Part shown: positions 19,801 to 44,749 of the stretch, in pieces
Position numbering within the stretch: position 1 is the first letter of the stretch
How the letters are laid out: each line of letters starts with the position of its first letter
Translations under genes and position numbers: made by a program
Assembly (NCBI GenBank): GCA_030704615.1
Contig: CM060734.1
Span: 60,264,001 to 60,328,000 of the forward strand
DNA length: 64,000 bases
Direction: 5' to 3'
DNA from: Takakia lepidozioides
Taxonomy: Eukaryota > Plantae > Bryophyta
Notes under the pieces: model-generated
The model's input: the letters and a program-made list of their open reading frames with translations, nothing else
Told to the model about the DNA's origin: nothing
The model's database searches: none

Positions 19801-22800
19801 ATTCTGGATAGAACATACAGGATCAAACAGGTACTTGTTGTATTCTTCATCAGTGTAGCGCACCCCGTTAATAGCCTACATGAACAACACAAATAGCACT
19901 AGTGAATCCCACATAAATCCATCCAGCACTCATGGAAAAAATGTTAGCTTATGACAAGGGATTTGCGTGGTACCTGCTACCAAGTAGGATTTGACAACTG
20001 TGATACAGGATGCACAGAGATATGAATATTTGATAGGTACAACAAAAAGCAGCAGTGACGTTATGGAGTCAAGGAAAGCAAAGCTAATTAGAGCCACAGG
20101 GTAATCATACACCCAAGCTGGACTCTGAGCCTGAAGGTAGTGGTACCTTGTTATATTTCGCAAATGCATAGTCTCCTGAGGGTGGCAACCCATCCACAAT
20201 CCGGACCTGTTCAAGCAACTAAAAAGGTCAGACTTTGCCAACTCATGACTAGATAATGTTTCCTTGAGGCCAATTACAAAACACTGAAGTATTGTTGCCT
20301 AAAGATGTAGTCAAAGGATGAATACGGAATTGCACAGACGGAAGAGAGAGAGCTTACATTTGTCAACCCTCCAGACAACTGTTTTTTATATTGACATATC
20401 AATCCAATGCACACTTTTCCATTGTTGTTCTTCTGTCATAGGCAACACTGCTATAACTATCTATTATAGCCTTAGTCATTCCTACAAACAAACACCAAGT
20501 TCATCCACTCTAACACCAGCTGATGCTTGACACGGAGAAGAACAAACCCAGTGATAAAGCTGCAAGTTATCAGACCGCGCCGATGTTGCAAAAGGAAGCC
20601 ATTGCCATGATATCTGTCCACCCACACATCCAAAGTACTCTGAGAACTTAAAACCCCTCTCTCTCTCCCTCTCTCTCTCCCTCTCCCTCTTCCTCCCTGT
20701 CCTCTAGGAAGCCTATTACTTGATACGGGAGTACATTAATGTCTCTGTGACTAAATGCCGGCCTTGTGACCTCGTGTCCTTGTTTGTTTCGACCTGAAGC
20801 GCTTTGCTCCAGGTAAGGTAGTGCATTGGATTTAGTTGGAAAGCTTGGGGCCTTTCCCTCTTTAGAATATGCCTACACGGGCCATTCCCTGCAACTCCCT
20901 GGAGTGTGATCTCTGAATGGTAACAAGCGGACCCCTACTGCTTGGGGGCAGCCCCTCCGCCCAAATTGGGCAGTCGTATGCTCTGTATAGCATACTCGGC
21001 ACTTGGGCTCGGGTTGGTTCCTGTGCTTAAACTTATAGCCTGCGAGATCAATCAAAACTTTAGCTCCTATTAACATCAACACTCCCCAGGGTGATTCCTG
21101 GGAATTGGTTACTTATGCCAAATCTAGGGCTTCATGTGTAGTTTTTGGGGTGAATCCCAGGATGGACGATGTGTCCCTTAAAACTACATGCTCTAGCTTA
21201 GGCTTGGATTTCATGGCTAATGGTTCCATCTCGAGACTTGATAACAGGGGTACGTTGAAGGTTGCAATGACCAAAAGTGCTTCTAATAGAGTCCCACATC
21301 AATTCAATCTCAAAGAAGTTCGTCCCTTGACTGGCTGGAGAGCGGTCTTAGACATTGGTGATTCAATGGGGCGCTCTAGGAAGACAACCAAGGGCAAGGA
21401 CTTCAACTTGAGAGTTTCTAATCGGTTTGATGCTCTGGATGAGGTTGAATCCAAACAGCCAGAAGACCAAGATGCCCCTAAGTGTACAGAACCTGACCGT
21501 CCTGAATCTGAAGGATTTGGTACTCTGAATGGTTTACCAATCCTCAAGGTTTACACAAGACGAACAAATTCTATACACGGGGTAATTGCCCCCAAGCCGT
21601 CAGACGGACAATCTGTCCCTAAGTGTGCAGAGCCTGAACGTCGTGTAACTGAAGGACTTGGTACTCTAAATGGTTTACCAATCCTCAAAGTCTACACAAG
21701 ACGAGCAAAATCTATACACGGGGTAATTGTCCCCAAGCAGTCTGACGGACAATATGCCCCTAAGTGTGTGGAGCCTGTGCGTCGTGTAACTGAGGGATTT
21801 GGTACCCTGAATGGTTTACCAATTCTCCAAGTTTACACAAGACGAGCAAAATCTACACATGGGGTAACTGTCCCCCCTTTGCAGAACGGTTGGCCGTCCA
21901 GGAGCAATCACAAGCTACCTAGACGACAAACAATTCACATGCAAAGGGCTGGCTTGCGGCTGGCCACTTTCAACTTCTCAGGGCTTACTAACCACAGGAA
22001 ACAACTCGAAGTGGGACAAGTCCTTCGGACTAATGATATTCATATCTGTGCTGGGCAAGAAACATGGGAAACGACGGATAAACTGGTTGGAGATGTCAAT
22101 GGTTATAAATGGGCAGGTAGGATGTGTACTCTCAAGGCAGCCTCTGCCAAACGCAGTCAAAAAGGGGTTGGATTCTTTGTCCGTGATTTCTTGTGTGATA
22201 ATTGTGAAATTATCAACAAGGGTTTGAGGTACGAGCATAGTATCTGGCTGAAACTGAATCTGAAGGGCGGCATGAGTACAAAGGACCTCTTTGTGGGTTG
22301 GGTTTACATGCCCACAGAGGGGACCCTTAGTGCTGACGCAGACAAAGCCTTCAAAGATGTAAAGCTGGACTGTGCTTCGTTCCTTGCCAAAGGTCAGGTA
22401 GTGCTATTGGGTGACTTCAATGCCCGGGTGGGCAAAGGGCTCCATCAGGACGATATCATTGGGCCTTTTGGTGAGGACAAGCTGAATTCTAATGGCAGAC
22501 GGTTAATTAACTGTCTGGAAGAGCTTCAGCTTTTGACCTTGAATAACAGGACAAGAGGTGACCAAGTGCAGTGGACTCGTGAGAAATCCCAAACTGGGGA
22601 ACGTTCCATTGTGGACTATATCATAATGGACAAAAATTTGTTTCCCCAGTGTGCCAATGTGTTGATCGACAGAACTGATATTGGTACCTCTGACCACTTC
22701 CTGGTTTGGACTAAGATCAAACGGTGTTTTCCCAACACCAAGAGATCTGTGAAACGTTCGATTCGGAAGTGGCGCATAGAAAAATTCCGTAATGAGGAGG

Positions 22801-25584
22801 TCAAGGCTGAGTACGTCCAGGCCTTGCAAAAGGCTCTCCCTCATTTTGTCCAATCGCTCCAAGAACTTCAGTCTCGCTCTGACAACGCAAGAAATGAAGT
22901 CGAAAGAGCAGTGGACTCTTGGGAGAGTTCCGTTTCCTCCGTGGCTGACAAGATCATTGGGAGAAAACTAATTGTCTGCGGTAGAGCTGTTAATTGGTGG
23001 ACCAATGAGATCAAACTCAAGATAGCTGAGGGACGAGCCCTTTATAAAGAGTGCTGCAATTTGAAAACCAACAGAGAATTGTGGGCGAGGTACTACCAGC
23101 TCCGTAAAGATATCAATCAGCTTGTTAGGTCTCAGAAGAAATTATACTGGGACAAGCTATACAGTGAAATAAACTCAAACCACCATGGTGATAATGACAA
23201 GAAATTCTGGTTGGCCCTTCAACGTTTGTACAAGCCTAAAAACAGCCAGCAAGTACAAGCGCTGAAGACTACTAAAGGTGCAGTGGTGACTTCATCGGTT
23301 GACATTGTCAAAACCTTTGAAAATCACTACAGTATCCTTGGCAGAACTTCTAGGTCTAACAGTGAGGGGTCTTCTGCTGAATGGAGGGACACAGTTGGAA
23401 AAACTGTTACTATGATTCAAAACAGCCCTGATGAACTGGAGTATATTTCAATGGCTTATAACGCTCCCATTAGTTCTTCTGAGATTGTGGAAGAAATTGA
23501 ACATTTAAATGGATATAAAGCTGGTGGACCTGATGGTATTGTCAACGAGCTTATCAAGCACGGTGGCGATCCCATGATAGAGGCCCTAGTTCTCTTCTTT
23601 AACCTTATCTGGAAGACTGAAATGATCCCCTTTCACTGGCGACAGGGGGTTATTGTCAATCTATACAAGAAGGGTGACAGAGAAGAACCGGGGAACTACC
23701 GTGGCATCACGCTCCTCAATGCTGTTGGCAAGACATTCTGCAGAGTTATAAGTACTCGTCTCGAGGTTGATCTGGAGTCTAGAGGTTGTTTCCACGAAGG
23801 CCAAGCTGGCTTTCGGCGAAACAGGGGCTGTGTGGATCATATCTTCACTCTAAGCCAGATTATCCAGGGAACGAAAAAAGAAGGAAAACCCACTTACGTT
23901 TTTTTCCTGGATGTCAAAAAGGCTTATGACACAGTGTGGAGAGATGGCCTATGGTTCCGCCTCTGGTCTTGTGGGATCAAGGAAAAGATGTGGAGAGTTG
24001 TCCACAACTTGTAAGCTCACACCAAAAGCAGTGTCACTGTTAACGGACAGAAGTCCAACTTCTTTGACATAGACCAAGGTGTAGCTCAAGGATGTACTCT
24101 CTCCCCTCTGCTCTTCAATGTTTTTATCAATCAACTCCTCGAGGATGTGGAAAGTGAGGGATTTGGGTTAAGGGTGGGTGATACCACCATACCAGCCCTT
24201 ATGTTTGCGGATGACTTCGCAGGCATAGGGGAGACTCCAACCAATCTCCAGGAGTTGATTGATTGCGCGAAGAGATACTTTGATCTTTGGGGGCTAGAGG
24301 CTAATGTCAGCAAATGTGCAGTGGTAGCATTCAACGACAGAGGAGAGGGAGGAAGTGATCTTAAGTGGCAGTGGGATAAGCAAGAGATCCCGGTCCTCCC
24401 TTCCTACACTTACCTGGGCGTTGAGTTTTCCTCCAATTGTAATTGGGATGCACATATCCGGAAAGTTGTTCAAACTGGCAAGGGCAAAGCTCTGGGGCTC
24501 ACTAAATTTTTCCACTGCAGAGGGGTCAACTCTGAGGTTAAGAAAACCATGCTTTGTTATTAGACCTGCCTTGGAGTACGGATCTGCTATATGGGTTGAT
24601 AACTCCAACCAGGCTAAGTCTCTAGAATCCATTCAAGTGGGGGTGTTTAAGGAGTGTATGTCAGCATGCTCCAAAACAGCCAATGTGGCTGTTCGGGTGA
24701 GTTTGGCATTCCGTCCTTAAGCTCCCGACGAGATGAATTCAAGGTCAGATGGTGGGGTCAGCTGCAACATATGCCCAACACCAGATATCCTAAGTTAATC
24801 GACTCTATATCTTGGAAACAGGACCGCCCTGTCAAACAGGCTAAGTCCTGGCAGAAGAGAGTAGAAGAGATTCTCAAGGACCTGGACCTGGATCCGCAAG
24901 TCTTGACCCTGCTGGATAAATCTGACTTAGAGGCTGTAGTGTCCGAAGCCATGTCTGTTGCCATGAGATTGTCTGATGAAAATGAAGTTCGGCAGAAAAC
25001 TTCCCTGAACTTGTTTCCAGTCAGTGACATGGGGGAGGACATCTTGGATGACCTCAAGGGTCTACCCACTCTCGGCACTAGACTGAAATTTAAACTCAGG
25101 GCAGAAAGCCTACCTTTGAACAGCAAACAGAAGCTGAGAGGAAAGGGAGAGTGCAATTGCCCGTTGTGTGGGCAATCTGAAGACAGTATTCATTTTCTGA
25201 TACACTGTCCGGGGTTCTCTCACCAAAGAGACGCTCTCTTCAATTCTATCAAGGGAATTGTGCCTGTACCCCTGTTTACCAACTTTGAAAGTCTCGAGGC
25301 TGAGCCAAAAGCCCAGGCCCTCCTGAGGCCTAGTTTTTGGGCAAATAACACACAGCAGATTGATGTTTGTGTGAAGGGATTTCTAGAGGATATCTGGAAA
25401 ACCCGGATTAATTCTTTATATGAAGGTAAGGCTTACTACCAACGTCAGCCCCTGACAGAGGTAGGTTCTGTCCCTTTTGTTCCCGCTCAAACTGGGTGCG
25501 GGGTCAAGCCACAAGGCTACGGCAAACAACGTCTTATGAGTACAATCTCTCTCTCCCTCTCTCTCCCTCTCTCCCTCTCTCTCC

Positions 25585-25644
<60 letters not shown>

Positions 25645-27057
25645 AACGTCTTATAAGTACATTCTCTCACACAGGGGAAAGAGGGGTTGCAATTGCCAGT
25701 TGTGTGGGCAACCTGAAGACAATATTCAGTTTCTGATTCATTGTCCTGGGTAGTCTCGAGAAGGACGCCCTCTTCAAATCCATCAAGGGAATTGTGCCTG
25801 AACCTCTGTTTACCAACTTTGAAAGTCTCTTTTGGTCTGAGCCAAAAGCCCAGGCACTTTTGGGGCCTAGTTATTGGGCAAACCACACACAGCAGATTGA
25901 TGCTAGTGTGTCAGGATTTCTAGAGGATATCTGACTAATTGTCTGTTCCAAGGTAAGTCATAATACTGGCGTCAGCCCCTGACCAAGGTAGTTTCTGTCC
26001 CTTTGTGTTCTGCTCAAACTGAGGACGGCGTCAATGGCCACAAGGCTACAGCAAACAACGTCGTATGAGTACATTCTCTCTCCCTCTCTCATGCGCAGTG
26101 GTGGCATTCAACGACCGTGGGGAGGGAGGAGGCGACTCAAGTGGCAGTGGGAAAGCCAAGAGATTCATGTCCTCCCTTCCTACACATACCTTGGTGTTGA
26201 GTTCTCCTCCAACTGTAATTAGGAAGCAGATACACAAAAAGTTGTTCAATCTGGCAAGCGCAAACGTATGGGTCTCACTAAATTTTTTTACTGCAGAGGG
26301 ATCAACTCTGAAGTCAAAAAGAAGCGTTTTGCCACATTATTAGGCCTACCTTGGAGTACACATCTGCTGTGTGGGTTGATGACTTCAACCAGGCTAAGTC
26401 TCTAGAATTCATCCAAGTGGGGGTGCTCAAGGAGTGCATGTCAGCATGCTCCATAACAGCTTATGTGGCTGTTCGGGGTATTCTCACCAGAGAGTGACCC
26501 TCTTCACACACACATACCTGGAACACCCCTAAAGAGTGCGTACTCACAAAACCCTATACATGAATGAGAGAAGGAAGCAGTGGTGTACCTTTTTATTATT
26601 GGGCGCCTGCTGCCGTCTCAAATTCGAAGGGTCCAAGGTTGGCATAACTGGGGGTAGGCCACCTGTGAGGGCATAAACCTGTACAAAGTGCTCTCAACAG
26701 ACTGCTGGCAACCAGTTTCACTTATCATGGATTTCCTCCTCACATCGAAATTATCAGAGCAAGCATCTACGAAATCCCAGTACATTAAGCGCCCTCCATC
26801 CTAAATTGAAGAAGGTCCGAGTCAAAATACATACAAACACAATCAAGTACTTCATTTCAGACAAAGCACCTTATCTACCTTCGTCATCTCCCGCACTCAC
26901 ATGCAAGTATGTACACAAAGCTGCAACTTTACAGTACCTCTCGGGAAACTCCATCTGGCTTCTTGAAAGCATCTTTGGGCGCTCGCCCGCGTTTCTCAGA
27001 ATTTCCCCCGAGTGCAGCTCCTTTAGGAAGTCCCAATATATCCTTAGCATCCCCCAT
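13823..27057 (-). CDS. SWC4: SWR1/NuA4 complex subunit SWC4 (DMAP1/EAF2 homologue), ~15 exons
   Basis: Exons read in frame: 27057-26938 ([12 protein letters not shown]...KKPDGVSRE), 26678-26589 (VYALTGG), 20613-20548 ([22 protein letters not shown]), 20206-20147 ([10 protein letters not shown]), 19875-19819 ([10 protein letters not shown]), 19254-19125 (SANT-like [27 protein letters not shown]), 18896-18829, 18579-18487, 18340-18293, 17349-17128, 16997-16887, 15620-15525 (KPKVPT...HLELRKE), ~15260-15181, ~14881-14803, ~14413-14380. The last exon ends [21 protein letters not shown] at 13823. Confidence 0.92.
15727..16705 (-). mobile_element. 5'-truncated LINE copy (3' ~1 kb) in a SWC4 intron
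   Basis: Near-identical to 24545-25545 on the opposite strand ([26 protein letters not shown], 3' tail ...GTCTTATGAGTACAATC). It has a small internal deletion near 16240. Confidence 0.92.
17490..17972 (+). repeat. ~240-bp near-perfect tandem duplication of a decayed LINE C-terminal fragment
   Basis: Two units start aggaaaaggagactgtcaatgcccaatgtgcg and encode [16 protein letters not shown], like the LINE C-terminus. Confidence 0.85.
21105..25545 (+). pseudogene. LINE polyprotein reading frame, disrupted by a TAA at 24012-24014 and frameshifts near 24555 and 24700
   Basis: ORFs 21105..24014, 24147..24563, 24355..24720 and 24654..25736 tile one APE-RT-ZnF protein. The 15727-16705 copy shows the uninterrupted frame at both frameshift sites. 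Confidence 0.88.
21473..21877 (+). repeat. Three 141-bp (47-aa) in-frame tandem repeats in the LINE N-terminal region
   Basis: PKCxEPxR..[25 protein letters not shown] occurs three times. The 'taagtg' anchors lie at 21479, 21620 and 21761. Confidence 0.92.
25675..26480 (+). mobile_element. Older diverged LINE fragments of the same family (3' end first, then an RT-region piece)
   Basis: 25675-26075 resembles 25140-25545. 26093-26480 resembles 24317-24700 ([29 protein letters not shown]). Confidence 0.85.
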
Positions 27058-29849: not shown

Positions 29850-31594
29850 GGGCGGGCCCGGCACCAGCCTGCATTGATACTGACTGCGTCCCTATGGCAG
29901 ATCGGGTCCGGCTGCAACCATGTCTGATTGCACAAACTTGTGTCGCTCCTGCTCCTCTGCTCCAGTACACAGGCAACCACGAGCGGGGGTTCATTAGCCA
30001 TTACAAGTTTGTTCTGCTTCAAGGAGATGCAGTCATTCGCAATGAGACAAACCCCAACCGTCTCAAGCTTTCGAGTGAGAGAACTATCAGACCTACCTTG
30101 TTTTCTTTAGTGTTCAGTGAGCGGGAGATAGGGAGTATTGCTTTGTTTCGACCTGGTAGAAAGAGGAGGACCGGGCACGAGGTGCAGGCCAAAGACGCGG
30201 AGGTCAGGGTGTTGACCAAGGCATGGCCAACCTTTTTCAGCAGCTAGAGCAGAGGCTCGTTGCCATGGCTTACAGCTCAGGCGTGTACCCAGACTCCCAG
30301 GCGGGATGGGTCACCTCCTGCTCTCTGAGGGAGGAGATTGGGGAGGCATGGATTCATGTGCGGGAGCAGCGCTACCACTAGAGCAGGTGGAGTTTGCTGC
30401 AGCCCGTGACCCGAGGCGCAATCACGAGTTCCTGAGCCACGAGGTGCAGAGGTGGAATTGGATCCACAGTGTGGGGAGGCAAGCCGTCAGGCGAGGCTTC
30501 CTCAGTCATTCACATTGCGGAGACTGTGTCGACGCCATCCCAATGGCAACCTAGTTCTCTCGCCGACTGTTACCCGAGGTGGAGGTTACTATGTATTGGG
30601 GAGACTACATCAAACACTGCACCCTGACACCCCTGCTACTAATGCTAGTGCATCTGGTGTGTTATTGGGGGCAGCCACCTTTGTGTGTCAAGCCCACTGT
30701 TCTTGGCAACCATGATTGTGAAACCCCGGGGTAAGACCAGCTGCAGTGTTCAGACAGTAGCAACACTTCACGAGAGTGGGGAGGTCACTTCATCTCTTCT
30801 GCGGGAGTTAGTGGAAGGTGTAGTGGCAGAAAGATCCTCGGATTTGGGTCAAAGACTGCCACGGCGACGGCTTGCGCCCTGGCAAGCTGAGCTGCCAGAT
30901 TGACGGCGCTGCACTATGCCAAGCCTTTGAGCGCGCCATGGTGACACCATGGAGTGTGTCTGTTAGACAACCAGGGAGGCATTTTTTCATTGATTGGACC
31001 GGCAGGCAAGAGGTAACCGGGCTCCTTCGGGTCTTGTTTGGACCTCGGGAGCTCAGCATTGATGTTGGGCGAGCTGCTATCACAGGTTTGGGGGCCTCAT
31101 GAAGGCGGATATAGGAGCTTGTCCTTTCCAGATACGACATCTTTGGGATGATCAGAGCAGTCTCGGGGCATTACGACTGCGTTTGTTTGGCCATCAGACT
31201 GGCAGCCGGATCATCCTAGAGATGGCGAAGAGTGAGCGAGCCAGGTCATTGTGACAAGACGCGGTCCTCTTATACGATGTCCTCGTTGGTGGGGCATGTT
31301 ATACCCATGGGCTTCACCCTGGGACTTTGGGAGGAGTCCATTCTATCAAAGGCCTGGATGCAGTCAGGGAATGGTCATCGTGCACAGCCCCTGTTAACAT
31401 TCATTGGGGGTATTGCGGCGACCCAGCGGGGCAGAATGCCAACACTAGCCTTTTACAGCTGGTCAGTTAGTTGCCTGAGTTGCTGGAATGCATGCCCATC
31501 AGAGGATGTGCCCACCTCCGCAAGCAGGATGACAATGCAATGTTCCGGTGGAGTTGTCCTGCCATGGTTGTGCTCACACGCGATTGTGGGGTAA
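29850..31594 (+). mobile_element. Heavily decayed gag-protease portion of the DNMT-carrying Ty3/gypsy family, cut at 31594 by a younger copy
   Basis: GGMDSCAGAALPLEQVEFAA, ELDPQCGEASRQARLPQSFTL, FERAMVTP and PMGFTLGLWEES match 37100-38700. It stops just before the methyltransferase domain. Confidence 0.88.
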
Positions 31595-32300
31595 TGTCGT
31601 GCGCATACATATCGCTACACAACTACATCGCTGTCCAAAACCACAACACACATGTGCACACCACACACTAGTATATACCACTAGTCTACCACTAGTCCAG
31701 CCACTAGTCCAACCACTAGGCTACAACTAGTCAGTCACTAGGCTGCCACTACGCTGCCCACTATGGCAGTCACTAGTCCACACAATGATAAAGAAGAAGA
31801 ATACAAGCACAAGCTCATGCGAGCTCACAAAGCTGAAGCATAAACTCATGCATATATAACTCATCACTCAAATACAAGTCAAGCCAAGTGCACCCCACGC
31901 CATGGGGAATCCACACTACGGCGCCATAGCTAGGCGCGGTGAGGCTCAACTCGAGAAAGATGAGCCTCCCGCTTTGCCGTGAAGATAACCACTCCAGGGC
32001 CTAAATCTGCCTTGACCCCTGGATTGACACTTGGGCCAATCCCAAATGTCAATATGTAAAAGCTAGCTATTTCCTAGCTAGTTTCACACTAGTGGTAAAA
32101 TAACTTGACAGCTGTCGTGCGCATACATATCGCTACACAACTACATCGCTGTCCAAAACCACACAACACATGTGCACACCACACACTAGTATACCACTAG
32201 TCTACCACTAGTCCAGCCACTAGTCCAACCACTAGGCTACAACTAGTCAGTCACTAGGCTGCCACTACGCTGCCCACTATGGCAGTCACTAGTCCACACA
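31595..32300 (-). repeat. 3' LTR region with A-B-A layout (A = 31595-31786 and 32113-32302)
   Basis: Two near-identical ~190-bp A segments containing ccactagt micro-repeats flank a ~325-bp hairpin-rich B segment. On the minus strand it starts TGTGTGG after PPT+AT and ends CGACA. Confidence 0.85.
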
Positions 32301-32560
32301 ATCGCCCCCCTAGCTGGTGCTTAGGTCCCTCTAAGTCCAGGTAGCCACAAGATGTGATAGTGACCATAGCCTCACTAAGTCCTCCACCACTATCCCTACT
32401 ACACTCAAACTCGATAGATCAAGAGGCCGGGTGCAAGAGTTGCCCCATCGTTAGTCGCCGTCTTGCAACCTGTGAACTTGAGCTTGGGATCTCATGTATT
32501 GACTCCTATGAGCTTGGCCTCCCATGTCTTGTTAGCTGCCTCCAGTCATGTCCACTGCCA

Positions 32561-32705
32561 CTATCCCAAGCAGTGTGGACACAACCAATCTCCGTCAGGA
32601 ACCTTCTCAAGAGGTGGTGTCAAGCATCCCATATGCCAACCCCTTGAGCATCGATCACACACCAGCATGGTGGCTGCCCCTTTGGCAGACCCACAGAGCA
32701 TGCAC
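32561..32705 (-). CDS. PHD finger at the integrase C-terminus
   Basis: CMLCGSAKGAATMLVCDRCSRGWHMGCLTPPLEKVPDGDWLCPHC fits Cys4-His-Cys3. The second copy (60282..60752) has it in frame with the integrase tail. Confidence 0.93.
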
Positions 32706-32749
32706 CTCAAACCTGCAGGTACCACTGCCAAGTTTGGGTCAACTCTCTG

Positions 32750-33830
32750 CCATCGACATTGGGAAGGTGACATGGCGCACAATTACGCACATGGTCCTTC
32801 CAAGTCATGCCATCCCGACCCTCCAAGATCAGGACCCCTGAGGGCAACACCTCTCGAACCCTCAGAATAACACGCCCTGCAGTAACATCCAGAGTCGTAG
32901 GAGCAGTCTGCTGCAAATAAACATAGTCACCAGGGCTAAACCTCCGAACCCCAGGACGATATCCTCCACCACGTATAGTGGCATACCTCAACGTATCACG
33001 GTGCTGTGCAATGGCAAGGTTCTCAAAAGCCATGGGCATGACTTTCTTGAACAACTCTGCACGCTGATCACATGCACGTACCCACACGTCCGGATCGTCA
33101 AGGTTAAGGACTTGAGCAGTGTCCCTACGAATGGCTGCAGGCAAATCCGGCTCTCGGCCAAAGAGAAGGAAATATGGTGAGAAGGAGGCAAGTGATGCTT
33201 GTTTGCTGAACCTGTAGCCCATGGCTAACCAAGGAACCTGAAGATCCCAATCTCCTAGGTGTCCCTTCTGCAAGCCATACTTGCGCAAACCCCTCTTCAC
33301 CGTCTGAACAACTCTCTCTGCTAAGCCATCGGCCTCAGGATGATCCCGAGAAGTGGTGCGGTGGTCTATCAAGGCTTTATCACACAAAAGCCTGAAACTC
33401 CCCCAAGAACTCTCTCCCTTGGTCCGTGAGTACCTCAGCTGGAGCACCAAATCGGCTAAGCACACGATCCAAGAATGCATACGCAGCCCCCTCACTAGCC
33501 TTGTCAGGCAATGGAACCAACTCAATCCACTTGGAGAAGTGCTCCACCATCACCAACACATATCTGTGGTGGCGCATAGTCAGTGGCAACGGTCCTGCGA
33601 AGTCAAGACTCCACCTGTAGCCCAATCCCATGATTGGTAAAGGATGCAACTGTGGTGTAGGGGCGTTGAATGAAGCACGCACCCTGTCACACACCATGCA
33701 CCTAGCCACAAACTGTTGCACCTCTGTATGCATACCACGCCACCAATACTGCCCCTGCAGTAAACTGTGAGTGCGTCGCACTCCAAAATGCCCCAACTCC
33801 TCATGGGCATGCCGCACTAACCGTGCACGC
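32750..33830 (-). CDS. DDE integrase (frameshifted)
   Basis: HAHEELGHFG...CMVC zinc finger; WSLDFAGP, LTDQGREF and DGLAERVVQTVK form the D,D,E triad. Confidence 0.93.
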
Positions 33831-34199
33831 TGTGTGGGTGAGGCACAATCCTCACCCGACCATCCTCCCACACTCGAAGTAGGTGTATCCCCTCCCACTT
33901 GAACCTCTTGGCTCGTTGCAGGATCCGATCCGATCCCTCTCCCTGGCAGTCACAATGGCTGCCGTGTCTCCCGTGCGGAGGTAGTCCAACACAGCCGAAT
34001 CCTCATGTATATCTCTGGCACCACCTAGCTCATCACTAGCCTCAGGGTCCTCAGACACTCCGTCTACAGTCATCCCTGTTGTAGGTCCAATCTGACCTCC
34101 CCCATGCCAAGATACACAAAAATGCAGATGCGTGCCATCCCGGCACCATCTCCTCGTCCGTCTCACCATGCCACCGAGCTCCAGTGTCATCCTGCTGGC

Positions 34200-35490
34200 T
34201 CATGCATGGATTGCGACTCAATCCATCCGCATCCCGATTGACCAAACCCGGTCGATGCACAACCTGAAAGTCATACTCCTGGAGTATAAGTGCCCACCGT
34301 GCAAGCTTCCCCGTAAGCTTGTCTGACTCCATCAACCACTTGAGTGGCTGGTGATCCGTGACAAGGGTGAAAAGATTGCCGTATAGATAGCACCTGAAGT
34401 GTGCCACGGCCCACACTGCAGCTAAGCACTCTCCCTCATATGAGCTGTACTTAGCCTCTGCAGCGTTGTTCGAGCGGCTAGCGTAAGCCACTACGAACTC
34501 TCTTCCCTCATCATCCACCTGTGTGAGCACCGCTCCAAGCCCCAGCATGCTCCAATCCGTATGCAGCTGAAAGGGACGCCCCCTGATAGGTCGTCTCAGA
34601 TAGGCGCCGAGGTCAACCTCGCCTTGAGCTCTTGAAAAGCTCGTTCCTGCTCATCTTCCCACTGCCACTCCTGGTCCACCTTGGTCAGCTTGGTTAGAGC
34701 CTTTGCAATGGTACTAAATCCCTTGACAAACCGTCTATAATAGTTTGCCAACCCCATGAAAGCTCGAACTCGGCTCACATCCGTGGGGCGTGGAATTTGT
34801 GCAATGGCCTCTACCTTAGTCTGCTGTACCCCCATCCTCCAGGATATATCATGTGACCCAGATACTCAATCTGGTTGTGGAAAAACTCACTTCCCCGGAT
34901 GCAACTTCAATCCGTGCGCTCTCAAGCGCTCCAATACCACCTGAAGGTGTCTCTCATGCTCCTCCATCGTAACACTAAAGATGATGATGTCATCTATGTA
35001 GCACCGAGCAAAGTCCACCCCTGCTAGAATCCTATCCATGACTCTCTGAAACTCTGCAGGAGCATTCTTAAGCCCAAATGGTAAGAACCGCCACTGATAT
35101 AGGCAATCCTTGCCGTGCTCATTGATCCCCCAGAATGCGTCTTCTGCTTGTCCGCCTCCTTGATTGGCAACTGGTGATATCCGGATCGTAAATCCAAAGT
35201 GCTAAAGGCCTTAGCATGCCCGATGGCATCAAAGATCTCCTCTGGTGTTGGCATGGCATACTTATCGGACTTGGTCTGACGATTTACAGGCCGGTAATCA
35301 CCGCACATACGTCTCTCCGTCCAATTGCCATAGACATCCTTCTTGGCTGGCATCACTGTGGCTGAAGCATACTCTCCACCAGAGAGCTCCACCAAACCTG
35401 CCTCCCAGAGATCTTGAGTCCTCATCTGAATCAAAGACCTCTCCATGTCACTGTATCTATAGGGTCTCCGAAAGATTGGCGTGTCAGTGG
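34200..35490 (-). CDS. Reverse transcriptase and RNase H (frameshifted)
   Basis: RT: RMCGDYRPVN, FSTLDLRSGYHQ, CYIDDIII (~34980-35003), RAFMGLANYYRRFV. RNase H: LHTDWS..GLGAVL, YEGECLAAVWAV, LVTDHQPL, NRDADGLSR. Confidence 0.94.
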
Positions 35491-36004
35491 CCAACTCATA
35501 TACGGATCTCTTGACCCTTCAGTGCTCCCAAGTCCTTCAAACTGAAGGCAAAGCAATTCCTGTAAGCCCTCAGGAACCGCCGTATACGTCGTCTCTCTCC
35601 TCCGGTGACAATGGGTCCAATGTCAGGCTCCCAATTGTCCTCCGTAACTACAACCTTAAGTCCAGTGGGCTTAGAGGTAGAGGAGCGTCGTCCGTGGTTG
35701 CTATGCGCAACCTCTTGAGCAGTACTCCCTGCCTGCTCAGTCAATGACAAGGCCTCATCCTGCCCCATCATCTCATCCTTGAGGACCTCCTCAACCCGAG
35801 AAGAATCCCCAACCTCATCCATCACAGCCGCCTGCTGGCTGCAACTCCCTCTGAACCTCGAGCACCTCCCACGTGTGCCATGGATGCATGCACCCCGTGG
35901 TCCTCACATGCTCGCCCCCACTCACTGCCTGTACCGTCTCGGTAGGCAGAGAGACCATTGAGGGAAGTGTATTCCGCACTCTGCGTTGCTCAGCCAGAGC
36001 CAAG

Positions 36005-36950
36005 CTGATAATCCAGGTCAAGCAATTGAGATCCATTGCTTGCCCCAACACTTGACGACGTGATGCCTCAGAAAGAGACGACACCGCCGTGGTACCAGTG
36101 GTAAAACCCATTGCCCGCTCACGCTCGTCAGCATTAGGCTCCACTAACTGCTGCAACTGAGCATCCCACAGGAGGCCAGGTCCACTATCCCGGAAAGCAT
36201 GCGATCCTGGGAAGCTGAGCAGTGTAGGTAATGCTGCTCGTGGTTGACCCACCTTGTTGACCACTGCCAAAGGCGAACGGTCATCGTGTCTCACACGTTG
36301 AGACTGCCTCCCTGTGTCCAGAATGTTATCCACTGTGAGATGTGCTGGCCGCTGCACCCCATCAAATGCACGCTTGAGCAGTGCGGGTGGCATCATGTTA
36401 GTCCACCATAGCCGTGGACGATGAGCCCGTGACCCCACTGTAGCTGCATCTAGCAACACTGCTGACCCAAGCCACGACCGGACTTGATGCACACTGGCCA
36501 TCACCCTGGCCCGAGAATCGCCCATCAGTGCACATTCTCCAAGATGTATGCTGGAGATACAGCTTGATGAAGCTGCAAGTGGCGCAAAACCCGCACCATC
36601 TCCCAAAACAGACCCGACCTCGAGTCTCGCAATCCATTGCCATGCCCGGCTGATGAATGCCCTTGGCAGGGCCAACCTGCCACTACCAGATCAATGGAGC
36701 CAACCCGCTCCAAATCCTGCGCCCCCAGCAACGAAATGTCTGCTGGCAAGGCCTGCTGATATCCACGAATTGCAGACACCGACAACAACTCAGGGTACCG
36801 CTGCACCAACTGAGCAACATGGCGAAGTGAAACGCGTCGTGCAGTCTCATCCCTCTCCACATACAGGTAACGCCGAACTCGTACACCTGCCTGTAACACA
36901 GCAGCCAATCCGGTGCTGATCCCGCCAAACAAGTCCAGAAGACAAATGCC
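36005..36950 (-). CDS. DNMT3-like DNA (cytosine-5) methyltransferase domain inside pol
   Basis: Motif I LLDLFGGISTG, II YVERD, IV IDLVVAGWPCQG (catalytic PC), VI YILENV, VIII DAATVGSRAHRPRLWWTN, IX ERERAMGF, X RRQVLGQAMD. One 1-nt deletion follows ENV (~36529). Confidence 0.92.
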
Positions 36951-37399
36951 TTCATCCGGAGACTGCCACACAATAGGTGTGGTGTCCAATGGAGACAATT
37001 GAGGTGGTCCTGGTGCAATCCCCACACTCTCCTCCTCTCCTGACGGTACAAAAGCCTCCACCCAGGCTTGTTGCACCCGTCGATCAGCATCCCGCTGCAA
37101 ATCCTTGCTCGTGCCCCACAATGGAGTCTGAGCAACCATGGTAGGCAACTCCGCCATACCATACATGTCATCCTGCTCTCCCCGAGGTGGTACATCCTCT
37201 GAATGAGCATTGCCCTCAAGCAACTCTCTAGGCCAACTCACTGCCGCGGTGAATGCTGCTAGTGTCGGCATCTTGCCTCGCTGGGCAACCGCAACTCCTC
37301 CTATGAACGTCACAGGGAGCTGCACACGCCGGCCCTCCCCTGACTGCCATGCAGGCCTATAGGAAGCTGACTCCTCCCAAAAATCCAGGGTGAAGCCCA

Positions 37400-38997
37400 T
37401 GGGGTACAACACTGCCCCCCAACCAGGACATCGTATGAGACTGCGTCTGTCACAATGGCCTTGGCTCGCATCACTGAGCCATCTGTAGGGTGATCCGGCC
37501 GTAGTCTGATAGCCAACTCACGCCGCCGTGTCATGCCCCGAGCCTGCTCCGATCCTCCCAGAGACGTCTGTATCTGGAAAGGACAAGGCTCCATATCCGC
37601 CTCCGTGAGGCCCAAGCCTGCAATAGCAGCTCTGCCCAGCATCAATGGCTGAGCTCCCGAGTCCAACAAGACCCGCAGTGGCCGGTACCTCTTCTTGCCT
37701 GCCGGTCCACTCAAACAGAAAATGCCATCCTGGTTGTCTAACATGACAACTCCAGGTGTCACCATGGCGCGCTCAATGGCTGGCCTAGCTGGCAGCTCCA
37801 TCAACCTGGCAGCTGCAGCTTGCCATGGCGCCGCCGTGGCAGTCTTGACCCTCAAATCCGAGGATCCCTCCGGCACTACACCTCCCACTATCTCCGCAGA
37901 AGATGAAGTAACCTCCCCACTCTCACAGAGTGTAGCTGCCAGCCTGAACACCTCAGCTGGTCTTACCCCCGGCGTCGCAATCATGGTAGCCGAGAACAAT
38001 GGAGCCTGGCACACAGATGTGGCCGCTCCTAGCAGCACACTAGCTGCCGTAGCCTTGGCAACACTAGGTAGTGGTGCTACCCGTGTAGCTCTCCCCAATG
38101 GCATAGTAACCTCCGCCTCGGTAACAGTCGGCGAGAACTAGGTGCCATGGATGGCGTCGACACTGTCTCCGCCAATGTGAATGACTGAGGAAGCCTAGCC
38201 TGACGGCTTGCCTCCCCACGCTGTGGATCCAACTCCACCTCTGCACCTCGTGGCTCAGGAACTCGTGCTGCTCCTCGAGTCACGGCTGCAGCAGACTCCA
38301 CCTGCACTAGTGGTAGTGCTGCTCCACACATGAATCCCATGCCTCCCATATCTCCTCCCTCAGGAGCAGGAGGTGGACCATCCGGCCTTAGAGCCGGTAC
38401 CACCTGAGCTGTAGCCATGGCAGCGAGCCTCTGCTCTAGCTGCTGAAGCCGGTTGGCCATGCCTTGGTCAACACCCTGACCTCCGCGTCCTTGGCCACGT
38501 TGAGCTTGCCCTTGGCCTCACCTCGTGGCTGGCCACCTCGTCCTCTCTGGGCTGCTCCACCTCGCCCCGGCCACCATTGTTCCCTTGGAACTGGCCTGGG
38601 CGCAACTCAGGATGCAAACCATAACACGGGCCTCTCCATGCCCGTTCTTGCCACAATGCCCACCTGCAACTGTGCAGGCTGTGCATGTGCCGGCCCTTTG
38701 CCTCCCTCTGGCAATCCTTCTTGACATGGGGTCCTCCACATGTCCAGCACACCACATCCGCCCGTTGTTGGCCAGCAAATGAAGGGAGAGACCCCTGCAT
38801 CTGAGGTCCTCTCTGCCCTTCCCTGAGCTTCACCTGAGCCCCCTTGTTGCCTTGAGCACGTTGAGGTAGTGGTTGGCTAGGAGCACCACTACCCCGTGGT
38901 GTCTCCTTAGCAAATCCCACCATGACCACTCGTTCCTCCACCATGTTGAGCTCTATCCGCTCTGCCAGCAAAAACACATTTGCTAAGGTGGGTTGGG
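37400..38997 (-). CDS. Gag C-terminus with two zinc knuckles, followed by aspartic protease (frameshifted)
   Basis: CWTCGGPHVKKDC, and a second knuckle clearest in the other copy (CGHCDKYGHGDAQC). Protease RVLLDSGAQPLML...YDVLVG. Confidence 0.88.
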
Positions 38998-39497
38998 NNN
39001 NNNNNNNNNNNNNNNNNNNNNNNNNNNNNNNNNNNNNNNNNNNNNNNNNNNNNNNNNNNNNNNNNNNNNNNNNNNNNNNNNNNNNNNNNNNNNNNNNNNN
39101 NNNNNNNNNNNNNNNNNNNNNNNNNNNNNNNNNNNNNNNNNNNNNNNNNNNNNNNNNNNNNNNNNNNNNNNNNNNNNNNNNNNNNNNNNNNNNNNNNNNN
39201 NNNNNNNNNNNNNNNNNNNNNNNNNNNNNNNNNNNNNNNNNNNNNNNNNNNNNNNNNNNNNNNNNNNNNNNNNNNNNNNNNNNNNNNNNNNNNNNNNNNN
39301 NNNNNNNNNNNNNNNNNNNNNNNNNNNNNNNNNNNNNNNNNNNNNNNNNNNNNNNNNNNNNNNNNNNNNNNNNNNNNNNNNNNNNNNNNNNNNNNNNNNN
39401 NNNNNNNNNNNNNNNNNNNNNNNNNNNNNNNNNNNNNNNNNNNNNNNNNNNNNNNNNNNNNNNNNNNNNNNNNNNNNNNNNNNNNNNNNNNNNNNNN
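38998..39497. other. Assembly gap (500 N)
   Basis: Run of N. Adjacency across it is not verified. Confidence 1.
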
Positions 39498-42400
39498 AGG
39501 GTTCGACACACAGCAGAGAATGAAGTGCAAGGACATGTGTCAAAAGAAGAGGACTGGAAACGGCCGTCAAAGGGATGAAAGGCGGCACCCATTTATGAGA
39601 CGGAAAAAGTGGAAACAGAACAACGGCAAGTACAGAAAAACTGAATTCATGTCGCATGTGTGATCCTAGTGGACTATCCAACAGGGAAAGTCCACTAAAG
39701 AAGATAAAAGTTAAAATCCAGTCACACTGATACAGCCAATAGAAAACCAGAGAAAGATCAAGAAAAGGGGGAATTAAGGCGCAAGAGACGGCGTCGTTCT
39801 GAGTAACTGGGCTGTCTCGACAGGACAGGCCATAATGCATAACTTGGAAACTATTGAAGGAGCTAACAGACTATACGCTCGCAATATTACTTACGGCAAT
39901 GGCGGAGACCGAAACGAAAGAGCAAGCAGCGTTTCTCCTTGAAACAATGCTTGCAAGCCCCGCAGGCTTCACAAGAGTCCCATACCTTTCTACCTTTCTG
40001 CGGCAACCATACTTTTCCTGCTTGGTGCACTACAGGCATTCCTGTAGTTGTTACCAGCCAAAGCAGTTCTGTGAGTCTAAGATAAGAGAGTGAGAGAATG
40101 GAGGAAATCAGGGTGAAGAGCAACACCATTCTGCAAAAACACCGATGGCTACCACCCCACAGGCGATAAAGATAGTGAAGGAGCTGAGATTGGAAGGATT
40201 GCAAAGCATGGATTGGACACACACCATAGACAGTACATGTTACAATTTTTGCAGAACTTTTGAGCCAAAGACAGGAACAACAACAGTTGAAGGAGTTTAA
40301 TTAATGATTAACTCCCCTATACCTCCAGCAATTGTTTTTCATTGCCAGAAGGTCATGTGTCTGTGGAGGAACACAGAGAAAGACTGCAAAATAGGGGATT
40401 TATTCCAAGAAGGGAGTTTCTTTAAAACTCAGGTTATGATGCTTGTACCAAAGCTGTGTACCCGGGTTAAAAGACATAGCCAAGTATTGAACGTTCTGAT
40501 GCCCTGAAACAGAAACCAACAATTTTGAGCAGATCCTTCACAGAGGAAATCCTCAAGGGCTTGAGGGACAAGAGGTACCATGGGCGGACATAATGTACAA
40601 CGCACTGGTAGAGGAGATGAAAGATTACAAGGTACTACCGCAAAATCTCCTATCATAGTGTCTGGCCCAATCATTGCTCAAATAATCCTTAGTTCTGGCA
40701 TACTTAATGCACACGAAAGGAAGGAAATGGGAGTGTTTGACCAGAAACAACTGCAATGGAAGAGCAGGCTCTTCACACAGTGAGGTGGACTAGCAGCACA
40801 ACCCGAGACTAAGAGGCGAGAAGGGAAAGACTGTAGTGGCGATCCACTGGCTTCACGGATTCCGCATTGATAATGTTTTTCCCAAGCTCAATGACCCGGG
40901 GGGCACAACAGCACAAAAGAATGTTATTACTGGAAGCAGGACCTTCAGATAGATGAGGAAGAAGTTACTTCTGCATCACAACCAACCAGCCACTTGAACG
41001 ACTTGTCACAAGGTCACAAGTTATCCATGCAGCTCAACCCGAATAATAGATTTGGAAAGTGAAGGGTAGATTTCCAACTACAGAACAGATAGTGGCGGAA
41101 ATAGAGCAAGGGGACCTTCTCTATGAATATCTGGTCTGGTCAAGCAGACAGAAATCCCAGAGGTGCAACAGTTACCCAAGAAAAATCCTGAGGTACATAT
41201 AATGCACACACCTGTGTCGGAGATACCACAGGCGGAAGGCCATGACACTGTAGCACCGGTCATAAATGAAGTAGTTCAGGAAGAAAATCCGGGGGACAAT
41301 GGTCCTGAATGGTTTGAGACATCATACTGTTGAAGATCGGGAGGAACAGCAGCAACCTCACCATGATGACCCTCAACAGGCAATGCTGATGAATTCCATA
41401 GGAAGACACTTAATTGTTGGGGACTTATGTCAAACCCATGTTCCAATTACCCCAATTGACAGCCTTGAAAGAAGAACTCAGGAAGGAGTTTGAGGGCTCG
41501 ACTTGCCACTGAGTGTTCAAACAAGGTCGATGAAGAGGTCACTCTTCAAGATGAAGCAGGACTTGGCCAATACATAAATGGCTTTGCAATTGGCCAAGCA
41601 ACAATTGATTGAGGCAGGCCTTGCGCAAGACCAGTTGCACGAAGCACATAAGCAACAGCTATACCAAATGCAGGTGCAGCATGAAACATTTACAACTATG
41701 CTTGACAAACAACAAAAGAAATAAACAGTTTTTTTCAAGCGGAAAACAAAAAAAAATGTTACGAAGGCAGAAGAAGAGAATGTGGAGCACATGAAGCTCA
41801 TTGTCGATATGAAGAATACAATCTGTCGCAATGAAGATACTTTCAAGCAATACAGGCAGATGGAAGCTGAGAATGAGAAATACATCGTGGAGTTGCAACA
41901 AACCATCGTGGGCCAATAGAAATGAATCGCGGTCAGTAACAAGGCTTCGAAAGAAGCCAATAATTTACTTGCTGCCTATGCGCAATTGGTTGAGCCACAG
42001 GCGAAGCGCATGAAGGCTTTACAACAGCAGTGGAATTGTATAAGCTAAGAGAGAGCAAACTCTCAGGGGAACCACAAGCAGCTTGGTGGATAACTAGCCT
42101 TATGCAGGTCTGGTTAGCACAATGGCCAGTAGAGGGCAAAAGCCCACGGAGCTCACCCAAAGCGAGATGAATGAGCTCAGACTGCAGGTGCAGAAACATT
42201 GCCACAACTACTATAGACAATGTCTATAGTAGGATCGCAGAGTTACAAGAGGATGTAGACGACTCCAGACTCAAGTAGAAGACCTCACTTCAAACATCGA
42301 CCAAAGAGTCTATATCCCTCAGGAACAGCTAATGGCTTCTTATTTGCAGAGCCAGAACTCTGGCTTTTCAGTCTTCACAGGAGGTGCAGGAGATGCCAAT

Positions 42401-44749
42401 GGTACAGGAACCAGTGTAAAACCACCACCAACAACAGTCAGGTCCAGTAGCTGAACCTGTGGTTTACAACCAACCACACCACCACAGCCGGAGGTGGTAT
42501 GGGGCAATGCAGCTTTTAACCCACCTAAAACTCCAAGCTGCCAGGAGTACAGTAGGGCTATGATTATGCCCTTCAACCAAATTCCATCATGTTGGATTTG
42601 GCTTTGGAAAGAATTTAGTCCTCCGCAGTCATTCGCACATTACTACCAAATCATGCGTATCTGGCTGCCAGTGGCAAACCAGGACTAAAGTTCTTCCAAA
42701 CAATCGACATATTGAAGATCATCACTTTGCACAATACTGGCACGAGGCAGGTACCATGTTGAGGAATTGGTTGCTTTCCAGGTTGTACATGGACTCATTT
42801 ATACCAAGACCAAGAGAGATAGCAAGTATTGTCATGGGGTGCGGGCTATACTACGCTGCTTGTTTCCTGATACGTTACCACATAGAGCAACAAAAGATGC
42901 AAGCACGATTTCAAAGTTACTCCAGTGGAGACATTGGGTATTAACCTTCGGTGCCACCTCATATGTACCTATATGACCCAAAACTTATGATACAAAAGGA
43001 TTCTCAAATTCGTTCATGGTTTCAAGCAGCCTGCAACAATTTGTCAACACACAGAAAAATTCGGACTTGATGACATTTTCTAAAGGGACATATCGCATGA
43101 AATAATTGCACGCCGGCACCAGTTAATTGGTACCCCACTCATCTGGACAGACAAGGAGCTCAGTGTCTACACCAATTTTGCTGTTCAACGGTTACACCAA
43201 GTTGTAAAATGCAAAACTTCCAGACAGGTTAGGACAGCATTGTATGCCCCAGATGATTCCACAAAAAGTTCGAAAATTAAAAACACTGAGAGGCGATGAG
43301 GATTCTGATACAAACTGTTTCTTCACAAAATTCCTTTTGACATGGGAGAAGACTATGCATTTCAGATGGAAGAAAAGAAACAAAGGGGATCTCCTATGCC
43401 GGAAAGATTACCTCGATATCAACCTCCAGAAGGCCTCACTTATCCAGGTAGTGATCAACCATCTCCATCAACCAGAGACATACCTCGGGCTCGTACACAC
43501 AGCCCACCACGAACTCTCAACGTCAACAAGGTGCTCACTCACAAAGGGTTGCTACTCGGAAACAGTAAACCGTGAGGACACGCTTTTTGAGGGGGGGGGA
43601 AGGGGGTAATGTTAGAGGACTGTAGGGGACTTAGACACTTATAACGGGATCTGTAGGGTACCCTAATTTTTGCACAGACTGAGACAAACAGGAACCTTAG
43701 GGGTGACAGCACGCGCACTGTAGAGGGGGTTACATAGCCCACACAGCCGACACAGCAGCACAGCCCACACAGCCAACACAGCCCGTCACAGTCGTCACAA
43801 CCCACACAGCCCAACAGCCCGTCACAGTCGTCACAGCCCACACAGCCGTCACAGTCGTCACAACCCACACAGCCAACACAGCCCGTCACAGTCGTCACAG
43901 CCCCCCACACAGCACGACACAGCCGTCACAGCCCACACAGCCACACAGCCCGTCAACAGTCGTCACAGCCCACACAGCCGTCACAGTTCGTCCAGCCACA
44001 CAGCCCACACAGCCCGTCACAGTCGTCACAGCAGACACAGCCCACACAGCCAGTCACAGCCCGGCACAGCCACACAGCCAGTCACAGCCCGACACAGCCA
44101 AACACAGCCAGTCACCGCTTGACACAGCTGTTCACGATAATAGGGAACGAAGAGTAGGACAGGGAAACGACTGTGGGGAACAACACCAGTGAAGGGAACA
44201 TGTTAGTTCACATACGACGGTTAGAGAGGGAAACGGTTAGAACCGCGGATAGGAGGATAAAGGGAAGAACGGGGAGTAGGAAAGGGATCATTATTCGGGG
44301 AGGACTTTGGAGACAGGCGGGAGCGGAGATCGGAGAGCACGATGAAGGAGAAAAGAGGATTAGTAGATGCTTGTCATATGCAAAGCTAGAGTGATATTGT
44401 AGAGCAGATTAGAGACATAATGGATTCGGCCTGATACCTGATAAATCATAATCTGATACTTATACGATACAATCACACTGTGTAGAGAGATCTGAGTGAA
44501 GCTGTGGATTGAATGGAGGAGTTAAGGAAACCGATAAATTGATGAAGCAAACTGATACTTAATTATCAATGGTAAGGTAGCTAAGATGAATGCGGAAAAG
44601 GAAACAATAGGAACACCCCCATGATACACTAGCTGTAGGTCATGACTGATTGTTCTGCGCGGGCTGAGTACTTAGAGATTTCCAACTCTTCTATCTTGGA
44701 GTTTCCGCCTCGGATAGCGAAGGGATGGGTGAGTAAAAGCCGCGCGACA
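39498..44749 (+). mobile_element. Second LTR family: indel-riddled accessory ORF, PPT (43589-43609) and 3' LTR (43610-44749)
   Basis: Inverted homologue of 46393-51590. PPT gaggggggggaagggggtaa. LTR TGTTAGAGGAC...CCGCGCGACA with an internal cacagcc/gtcacag array. Confidence 0.88.

Follow-up and report, generated by a model that had tools for sequence, protein, structure and literature searches.

Some DNMT3 methyltransferases are embedded in retrotransposons, as the accessible text of PMC12344493 records. One described case is KnitGypsy-Dnmt3 of Klebsormidium nitens (de Mendoza et al. 2018, PMC5890265), and the accessible text of a preprint (bioRxiv 10.64898/2026.05.21.726589) uses the name 'Gypsy-DNMT3' for elements of streptophytes. 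Here we analyse two copies of an element of this kind in a 64,000-nucleotide window of the Takakia lepidozioides genome (assembly GCA_030704615.1, contig CM060734.1, positions 60,264,001 to 60,328,000; all coordinates below are those of the window). By sequence both are decayed and belong to this known Gypsy-DNMT3 kind of streptophytes, to which the element is assigned because its methyltransferase profile best matches DNMT3A/3B/3C. Both copies end in a plant homeodomain (PHD) finger at the C terminus of the integrase. Judging from sequence, a predicted fold and analogy with known systems, we put at about 0.55 the probability that this finger tethers the integrase to nucleosomes without H3K4 trimethylation, steering insertions away from active promoters.

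Like KnitGypsy-Dnmt3 as it is presented in the main text of PMC5890265, the window element is a long terminal repeat (LTR) retrotransposon of the gypsy type whose polyprotein carries an intronless DNMT3-like domain within pol. Internal direct repeats at the 3' end of the window copies recall the DIRS-like repeats that the legend to Fig. 4c of that paper gives for the Klebsormidium element. Two K. nitens integrase-PHD proteins (P0034 and P0040) fall in the window's integrase clade, P0040 as sister to a locus with an upstream DNMT; these proteins may belong to the published elements. The terms 'PHD' and 'chromodomain' are both absent from the main text and three supplement texts of PMC5890265, of which Fig. 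4c may show a PHD, and the three supplement texts mention neither KnitGypsy nor an integrase. The two DNMT arrangements and the family-wide PHD pairing reported below are not stated in the accessible text of that paper or of the preprint, and a literature search found no text on an integrase-terminal PHD paired with a DNMT.

Several better-known systems offer partial parallels. In chromoviruses, whose chromodomain has a role in targeting that is summarised in the accessible part of bioRxiv 10.64898/2026.05.21.726589, a histone-reader domain is likewise fused to the integrase C terminus with a presumed targeting logic; here, however, the reader is a PHD, and its predicted ligand is the unmodified H3 N terminus, not methylated H3K9. 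ATXR5, a protein of plant heterochromatin, resembles the window element in uniting a reader and a writer, but it joins its PHD to a SET domain in a host enzyme, with no transposon integrase. In animals, the ADD domain of DNMT3A and DNMT3L is an H3K4me0-reading zinc module tied to a DNMT3-type methyltransferase. Unlike the ADD domain, the window's finger is a simple single PHD, of independent origin; it is part of the integrase, well removed from the DNMT and separated from it by a probable leaky stop. In Chlamydomonas, retrotransposons and DNA transposons alike commonly have PHD fingers as accessory domains, as stated by Craig et al. (2021, PMC8557442), who cite Perez-Alegre 2005 for REM1; the relevant passage of that paper describes neither an integrase-terminal position nor a pairing with a DNMT. 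Closer in composition are the EpiLTRs and DAM-LTRs, in which, according to the accessible text of bioRxiv 10.64898/2026.05.21.726589, an LTR element combines DNA methyltransferases and a chromatin reader. An algal sister clade of the window's element shares this combination, with a DNMT, a PHD and an amino-methyltransferase-like tail. The EpiLTRs of the preprint's accessible text carry chromodomains and occur in Cymbomonas and Euglena, whereas the window's own clade has no tail past the PHD.

Both copies carry a genuine PHD finger. In copy 1 it occupies 32570-32704 on the minus strand, where six-frame reading finds an intact Cys4-His-Cys3 set within the frame 32564-32782 (PF00628 E 3.3e-12, 46.7 bits against a curated cut-off of 24), and the stop codon closing the polyprotein (32561-32563, minus strand) stands two residues past the last Cys. 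In copy 2 the finger occupies 60291-60425 (minus strand; PF00628 E 2.8e-11, 43.7 bits) and shares a single 167-aa open reading frame (ORF; 60285-60785) with the integrase C-terminal domain, the stop at 60282-60284(-) again lying two residues past the last Cys. Ligand spacing is identical in the two copies (C-2-C-11-C-2-C-4-H-2-C-14-C-2-C). A frameshift near 32746 sets the PHD frame of copy 1 apart from its integrase frame (32710-33549). An initial sequence-only reading of the window had placed a Cys4-His-Cys3 PHD at the end of the polyprotein in both copies, at the site where chromoviruses carry a chromodomain, and for copy 2 had read it in the integrase's own frame; each of these statements held up, and the ranges it gave (32561-32705 and 60282-60426) amount to the stop, two residues, the finger and one extra base on the minus strand. 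Pfam scans of the window frames and of the relatives yielded no chromodomain match, the C terminus being the PHD.

The finger is conserved well beyond the window. All eight zinc ligands are retained in nearly all 21 rows of an alignment of the finger region with relatives (alignment A1), and PF00628 is present in 116 of the 120 relatives listed among 168 proteins found with the copy-2 frame as query. An AlphaFold2 model of the copy-2 frame (mean pLDDT 73.5, with 87-95 across the PHD blocks) predicts the cross-brace fold, which Foldseek superposes on solved PHDs with a root-mean-square deviation (rmsd) of 0.5-1.3 Å. The finger is also under purifying selection. Across 34 intact 45-codon fingers, taken from metagenome loci and both window copies, the ratio of non-synonymous to synonymous divergence (dN/dS) had a median of 0.34 over the 149 pairs with dS of 0.1-2, and each pair was below 1. 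Between copies 1 and 2 the finger has dN 0.029 and dS 0.45, and this low dN relative to dS means that most of the divergence arose while the finger was constrained. Alignment A1 contains a further nearly invariant Cys-x-x-Cys-His motif (copy-2 frame positions 96-100, region 60489-60500(-)) where the integrase C-terminal domain ends, about 20 residues short of the finger; it is possibly another zinc-binding element.

Comparison with solved structures indicates which class of reader the finger resembles. The best phmmer matches in the PDB were CHD4, PHF12, the first PHD of KDM5B and KDM5A, ATXR5, PHF21A, DPF3, KMT2D, BAZ2A/B, UHRF1 and AIRE, with no ING, BPTF or TAF3 chain among the 60 matches listed. 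In Foldseek the modelled finger alone superposed on the ATXR5 PHD-H3 complex (5vab) at 1.1 Å with 44% identity and on BAZ2A with an unmodified H3K4 peptide (4q6f) at 1.1-1.2 Å, identity ranging from 39 to 44% across these two entries. The DPF2 and DPF3b fingers lay at 0.5-0.8 Å, and UHRF1 at 1.3 Å as free PHD (3zvz) and 3.5-3.6 Å with an unmodified H3 tail (3t6r, 3zvy). Taken together, the sequence and the model show the finger to be most like the PHDs whose structures were determined with unmodified H3 tails (ATXR5, BAZ2A/B, UHRF1, KDM5 PHD1, CHD4).

H3-contact residues were transferred to the finger through its phmmer alignment with 5vab. The available text of PMC5499861 describes how, in ATXR5, the Pro60 and Gly62 carbonyls hold the amine of H3 A1, Asp41 and Asp44 hold R2, and main-chain carbonyls of loop 1 hold K4, with a preference for K4 that is not trimethylated. 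The Asp after the third Cys, equivalent to ATXR5 Asp41, is kept in the window and nearly invariant in alignment A1; the same is true of the loop 2 Pro-x-Gly that supplies the carbonyls for the A1 amine in ATXR5. Loop 1 is equal in length to that of ATXR5. PHDs that read H3K4me3 need an aromatic cage, whose residues sit elsewhere than the only aromatics of this finger, two Trp (one directly before the His and one before the last Cys pair), there being no Tyr or Phe. The N-terminal half of the finger is free of aromatic residues, so that a methyl-lysine cage cannot form. From these features, and from the modelled fold, we infer that the finger binds H3.

The second domain of interest is the methyltransferase. 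In copy 1 it spans 35863-36980 on the minus strand (PF00145 E 8.9e-12; located by tblastn with the relative P0123), and an alignment with its relatives (A2) contains motifs I, IV (PCQ), VI (ENV), VIII, IX and X, which the window has in common with the relatives. When searched against the PDB, the profile built from A2 matched DNMT3A/3B/3C with E about 1e-21, M.HhaI with 1e-8 and DRM2 with 1e-6; the window's single DNMT frame gave no PDB match by phmmer, the DNMT3 matches coming only with the profile. That the element encodes a methyltransferase, as had been read from the bare sequence, is thus borne out by the Pfam match and by the profile match to DNMT3A. For the Klebsormidium element, the DNMT domain alone produced no methylation in yeast, a result its authors deem inconclusive in the main text of PMC5890265.

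These observations suggest a model in which the two domains have separate tasks. The finger would bind an H3 tail lacking K4 trimethylation, and would thereby anchor the integration complex in chromatin that is not near active promoters; seated on the integrase, the finger would be a tether that targets integration, in the manner of the chromodomain of chromoviruses. The DNMT would be a co-inherited module acting separately, not the finger's obligatory partner, and in the window's branch it is probably made together with gag and protease, upstream of a leaky stop. An intact relative from a metagenome (L017, 976-8226) encodes gag-protease-DNMT (1369 aa), a TAG codon, and then reverse transcriptase (RT)-RNase H-integrase-PHD (1047 aa) in a single frame. 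Many gene models agree with this layout, covering either gag to DNMT (~1250 aa) or RT to PHD (~1050-1150 aa). Certain plant viruses use a leaky stop with the consensus UAG-CAR-YYA. The TAG of L017 is followed by CAG TTA and fits this consensus. In copy 1 a candidate remnant, TAG CAA CCA, lies in the DNMT-to-RT linker (35695-35703, minus strand) and shares the reading frame of the DNMT (35818-36690). The window has no other match to TAGCARYYA, where 4.3 would be expected by chance, and this one falls at the same junction as in L017; only its position, not the count, suggests a leaky stop.

The distribution of the two domains was assessed across relatives from three protein searches and a set of metagenome loci. 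Among the 120 of 168 proteins listed for the copy-2 frame, the top named matches were from Marchantia polymorpha (80% identity) and Calypogeia fissa (74%); further hosts include Sphagnum, Klebsormidium nitens, Volvox, Pleodorina, Tetrabaena and Chromochloris, and proteins of Chlamydomonas, Volvox, Tetrabaena and Haematococcus also occur among the relatives. A search with the window's DNMT frame gave 39 proteins, Calypogeia first, with many Marchantia gene models. PHD-tailed gypsy relatives in non-seed plants, which the sequence-only reading had mentioned, therefore do exist, in liverworts and Sphagnum as well as in Klebsormidium and many green algae. The precomputed PF00145 labels gave a DNMT in only 6 of 120 PHD-tailed relatives, a figure that was rejected as an under-call, since local phmmer searches with the DNMT segments of two family members detect the domain in the majority of the long relatives. 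Elements were classed as type A (DNMT ahead of RT, as in the window), type B (DNMT between RNase H and integrase) or type C (complete elements without a DNMT).

Among the 79 proteins that span the integrase, 33 are type B and three are type A; 21 have no DNMT between RNase H and integrase but an N terminus too short for judgement, another 21 are too short for judgement altogether, and a single protein, P0093, is type C, a complete gag/protease-RT-RNase H-integrase-PHD product by Pfam. At the DNA level, 80 metagenome loci encoding integrase-PHD relatives were classed; these come from few datasets, with several copies per genome, and so are not independent. Type A accounted for 21 of them, type B for eight and type C for one (L073), while five have a DNMT with the RT deleted or cut off, four are 5'-truncated, with gag and protease gone too, and 41 lie too near a contig end for judgement (in one of these, L031, the end of a DNMT is seen just upstream of the RT). 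The four truncated loci (L016, L022, L024 and L028), which have an RT and no upstream DNMT, were considered as DNMT-less elements and rejected because gag and protease are absent as well. PHD and DNMT are thus both present in 34 of the 35 informative loci.

A third protein search used as query the integrase-PHD part of the DNMT-less P0093. The 106 proteins examined comprised 78 of type B, 11 N-truncated DNMT-integrase forms, two of type A, 11 without a DNMT and with a short gap from RNase H to integrase, one with a long gap and no DNMT match, and three others; at least 380 residues precede the RT in five of the 11 DNMT-less proteins, with a DNMT nowhere in them. In this set the PHD was found in 106/106 and the pair in 91/106. 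Conversely, of the 39 proteins selected through the DNMT, seven reach the integrase C terminus, six with a clear PHD and one (P0156) with a weak match of E 0.0023, below the cut-off. Co-occurrence of PHD and DNMT across related elements, which the sequence-only reading had put forward as a check, is therefore supported by the informative loci, the long relatives and all seven of these DNMT-selected proteins, one of them weakly.

Phylogenetic analysis shows how this pairing is structured. Integrase trees (FastTree with 91 rows; an IQ-TREE quick run with 51 rows under LG+G4, from which the long-branch P0153, P0156, P0150, P0151 and P0155 and the empty row P0163 were left out) split the family into two clades with support 97 and 99. 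All type A elements fall in clade I, along with the window and the proteins from liverworts and Klebsormidium; here the PHD is terminal, the last Cys being followed by 0-15 residues, or by 45 in a single case. All type B elements fall in clade II, where 54-456 residues follow the PHD. The DNMT-less elements (P0093, P0159, P0164, L073 and others) nest within clade II as two or more groups, all with the PHD kept, and one such group is sister to the DNMT-bearing P0166 (SH-aLRT 99). The pairing of PHD and DNMT is thus old and stable, yet it represents few independent events, largely shared descent, because it follows two integrase clades with one arrangement each. The finger is not dependent on the methyltransferase, since the PHD has persisted in nested lineages whose DNMT is gone.

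Clade II elements, which are algal, have their own C-terminal additions. Beyond the PHD lies a barrel (with one weak Tudor match) and then a tail of about 300 aa (for example P0053 residues ~215-540; L037:10701-11393), for which modelling predicts a class I S-adenosylmethionine (SAM) methyltransferase fold, M.TaqI being among the matches. Weak matches to the Pfam D12 N6-adenine methyltransferase family occur in four of seven tails, together with the motifs (D/E)P(F/W)xGxG and SP(P/W)F. Clade II elements may therefore carry two DNA-methyltransferase-like domains along with the PHD.

A number of observations weigh against a tethering role as outlined above. The position equivalent to ATXR5 Asp44 is Ser in both window copies (S, N, G, D, Q or T in relatives), and the liverwort branch has a neutral or basic loop 1 where that of many relatives is acidic, so that specificity may differ from that of the solved PHDs. 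When the whole copy-2 model was compared with the Tudor-PHD proteins PHF1, MTF2 and UHRF1, the rmsd was 11-15 Å, too large to define the packing of the domains; this loose match probably reflects the modelled integrase C-terminal barrel beside the finger. The leaky stop is read from one intact locus and the plant-virus consensus. Near-universal pairing with a DNMT, in two positions, could mean functional coupling and not co-inheritance. Finally, the TE-rich site of two old copies fits targeting, but it fits selective survival in gene-poor DNA, where old insertions last best, equally well, and two decayed copies give no statistical weight on site preference.

The sequence-only reading had proposed that the element may combine an H3K4me0 reader with a de novo methyltransferase, steering integration into silent chromatin. 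If the two were functionally coupled, the PHD would read H3K4me0 and direct or activate the element's DNMT3-like enzyme, much as the ADD domain does, so that a new copy or its surroundings would be methylated in unmarked chromatin only. The frequency with which the two domains meet, in loci, in long relatives and in the DNMT-selected proteins reaching the integrase C terminus (the weak one included), is what such coupling predicts, as is the DNMT3 type of the enzyme; the algal branch places the DNMT directly ahead of the integrase-PHD, and the inactivity of the isolated Klebsormidium DNMT in yeast (main text of PMC5890265) might reflect a missing partner. These points lose force, however, in that the co-occurrence reduces to two integrase clades with one arrangement each, and in that at least two nested lineages have lost the DNMT and retained the PHD. 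In the window's branch, moreover, RT, RNase H and integrase stand between DNMT and PHD, as does an in-frame stop in L017, and protease processing would be expected to part the two domains. We therefore consider coupling unlikely and rank it below tethering of the integrase by the finger.

Two further explanations concern the finger itself. It could bind chromatin by some means other than H3K4me0, for instance through acetylated K14, methylated K9, the status of R2 or T3, another histone or a host chromatin protein, which would accord with the Ser at the Asp44 site, with a loop 1 unlike that of solved relatives and with the DPF3b, MOZ and MORF fingers, which read acyl-lysine, among the close structural matches. 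Those proteins, though, read acyl-lysine by a tandem double PHD where the element has a single finger, and conservation extends to the parts of the finger that hold the A1 amine and R2; we regard a different ligand as somewhat less likely still than coupling to the DNMT. Alternatively, the finger could have no reader role and be purely structural, a zinc module that helps the integrase to multimerise, to bind DNA or to stay stable. Integrases already use zinc modules such as the H2C2 finger, and the conserved Cys/His motif ahead of the PHD would fit such a use. We nevertheless find this improbable, since sequence and predicted fold point specifically to PHDs that read histone tails, and since the surface positions that contact H3 in ATXR5 are conserved, beyond the zinc ligands. 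Tethering of the integrase to H3 tails without K4 trimethylation is thus the reading we retain.

The domain order of the element was established from a Pfam scan of 84 stop-to-stop frames of at least 110 aa, from ORF lists and from tblastn with the relatives P0007 and P0123. Copy 1 reads gag-protease-DNMT3-RT-RNase H-integrase-PHD on the minus strand, and its domains have the protease-RT-RNase H-integrase order, the H2C2 finger and the rve core by which Ty3/gypsy elements are recognised. Its gag, with a CCHC knuckle (38146-38992, P0123 residues 220-488), enters an assembly gap (38998-39497), so that the 5' end lies outside the window sequence. There follow an aspartic protease region with a D-S-G motif (~37400-38062; ORF 37313-38137, P0123 residues 508-725), the DNMT, an RT spread over several frames (34754-35660; PF00078, tblastn with P0007), RNase H (34054-34650; PF17917 E 7.5e-37) and an integrase split over two frames (32710-33949; tblastn with P0007), with the H2C2 zinc finger (PF17921 E 4e-17), the rve core (PF00665 E 1e-11) and a C-terminal barrel. 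The 3' non-coding end (31595-32302) contains 192-nt direct repeats (31595-31786 and 32113-32302) that are 98% identical by self-BLAST. Copy 1 is full of frameshifts and stops, with one frameshift at the ENV motif of the methyltransferase.

Copy 2 spans 59498 to ~63790, also on the minus strand, and is ~88% identical to copy 1. It retains gag, protease and the N-terminal half of the DNMT (61716-63790, from repeat-family offsets, self-BLAST and tblastn with P0123), an integrase in three frames (60285-61722; Pfam and tblastn with P0007) and a 3' non-coding end (59498-60284) laid out as in copy 1, with direct repeats at 59498-59585 and 59936-60023. An internal deletion of ~2.7 kb has removed the C-terminal half of the DNMT, the RT and RNase H, and the copy is truncated at its 5' side near 63790. 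Internal-deletion derivatives of this sort recur: in copy 2 (junction 61716-61722), L001 (8912-10456) and L004 (4185-6348), the DNMT region is joined straight to the integrase or its C-terminal part, with RT and RNase H gone and the PHD kept. Self-BLAST and a relaxed BLAST of the ends found no pair of 5' and 3' LTRs for either copy, and none is definable because the 5' ends of both are missing; the intact locus L017 likewise gave no terminal repeats, its contig possibly being too short. Because both copies are broken, nothing in the window is functional.

The surroundings of the copies are rich in transposons. The 3' end of copy 1 adjoins an inverted, older fragment of a related element (30187-31591, plus strand; gag-protease part, weak tblastn with P0123) that is 81.6% identical to copies 1 and 2 by self-BLAST. 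One of the copies had been read as inserted into a relative; the inverted fragment on one flank agrees with this, but the other half was not found on the far side. The description of the site as TE-dense stands, given a long interspersed nuclear element (LINE)-type element at 21039-25733 and other repeated elements at 39504-52973. The former, on the plus strand, has a 991-aa open frame that encodes an RT as well as an endonuclease/exonuclease/phosphatase domain and is continued in the next frames. The latter include another large repeated element in two inverted copies (39504-44038 and 47018-51582, ~89% identical) and direct repeats 8.2 kb apart (44027-44752 and 52248-52973, 97-99% identical) accompanied by simple arrays rich in CACAGCC; neither an RT nor an integrase was detected in these repeats. 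The sole non-transposon match seen in the window is a caspase-domain match (Peptidase_C14, E 2e-10) at 8164-8733(-), possibly a metacaspase gene fragment.

Taken by itself the window is ordinary, holding two dead copies of a known kind of element. Retrotransposons that encode a DNMT are a published oddity, and in the Gypsy-DNMT3 family the DNMT nearly always travels with an integrase-borne PHD that resembles readers of unmodified H3 and that outlives loss of the DNMT. This pairing might account for the lack of activity in yeast of the Klebsormidium DNMT domain on its own. In a bolder reading, which we hold to be doubtful, the family would be an ancient green-lineage Ty3/gypsy clade with a read-write kit, comprising an H3K4me0-reading PHD and a DNMT3-type enzyme, and in the algal branch also a Tudor-like barrel and an amino-methyltransferase-like tail, with which it would choose unmarked chromatin and methylate its own new copy. 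If true, this would be a transposon-built counterpart of animal ADD-DNMT3 logic, independently assembled. Knowing what the finger binds would show how these elements choose and mark their landing sites.

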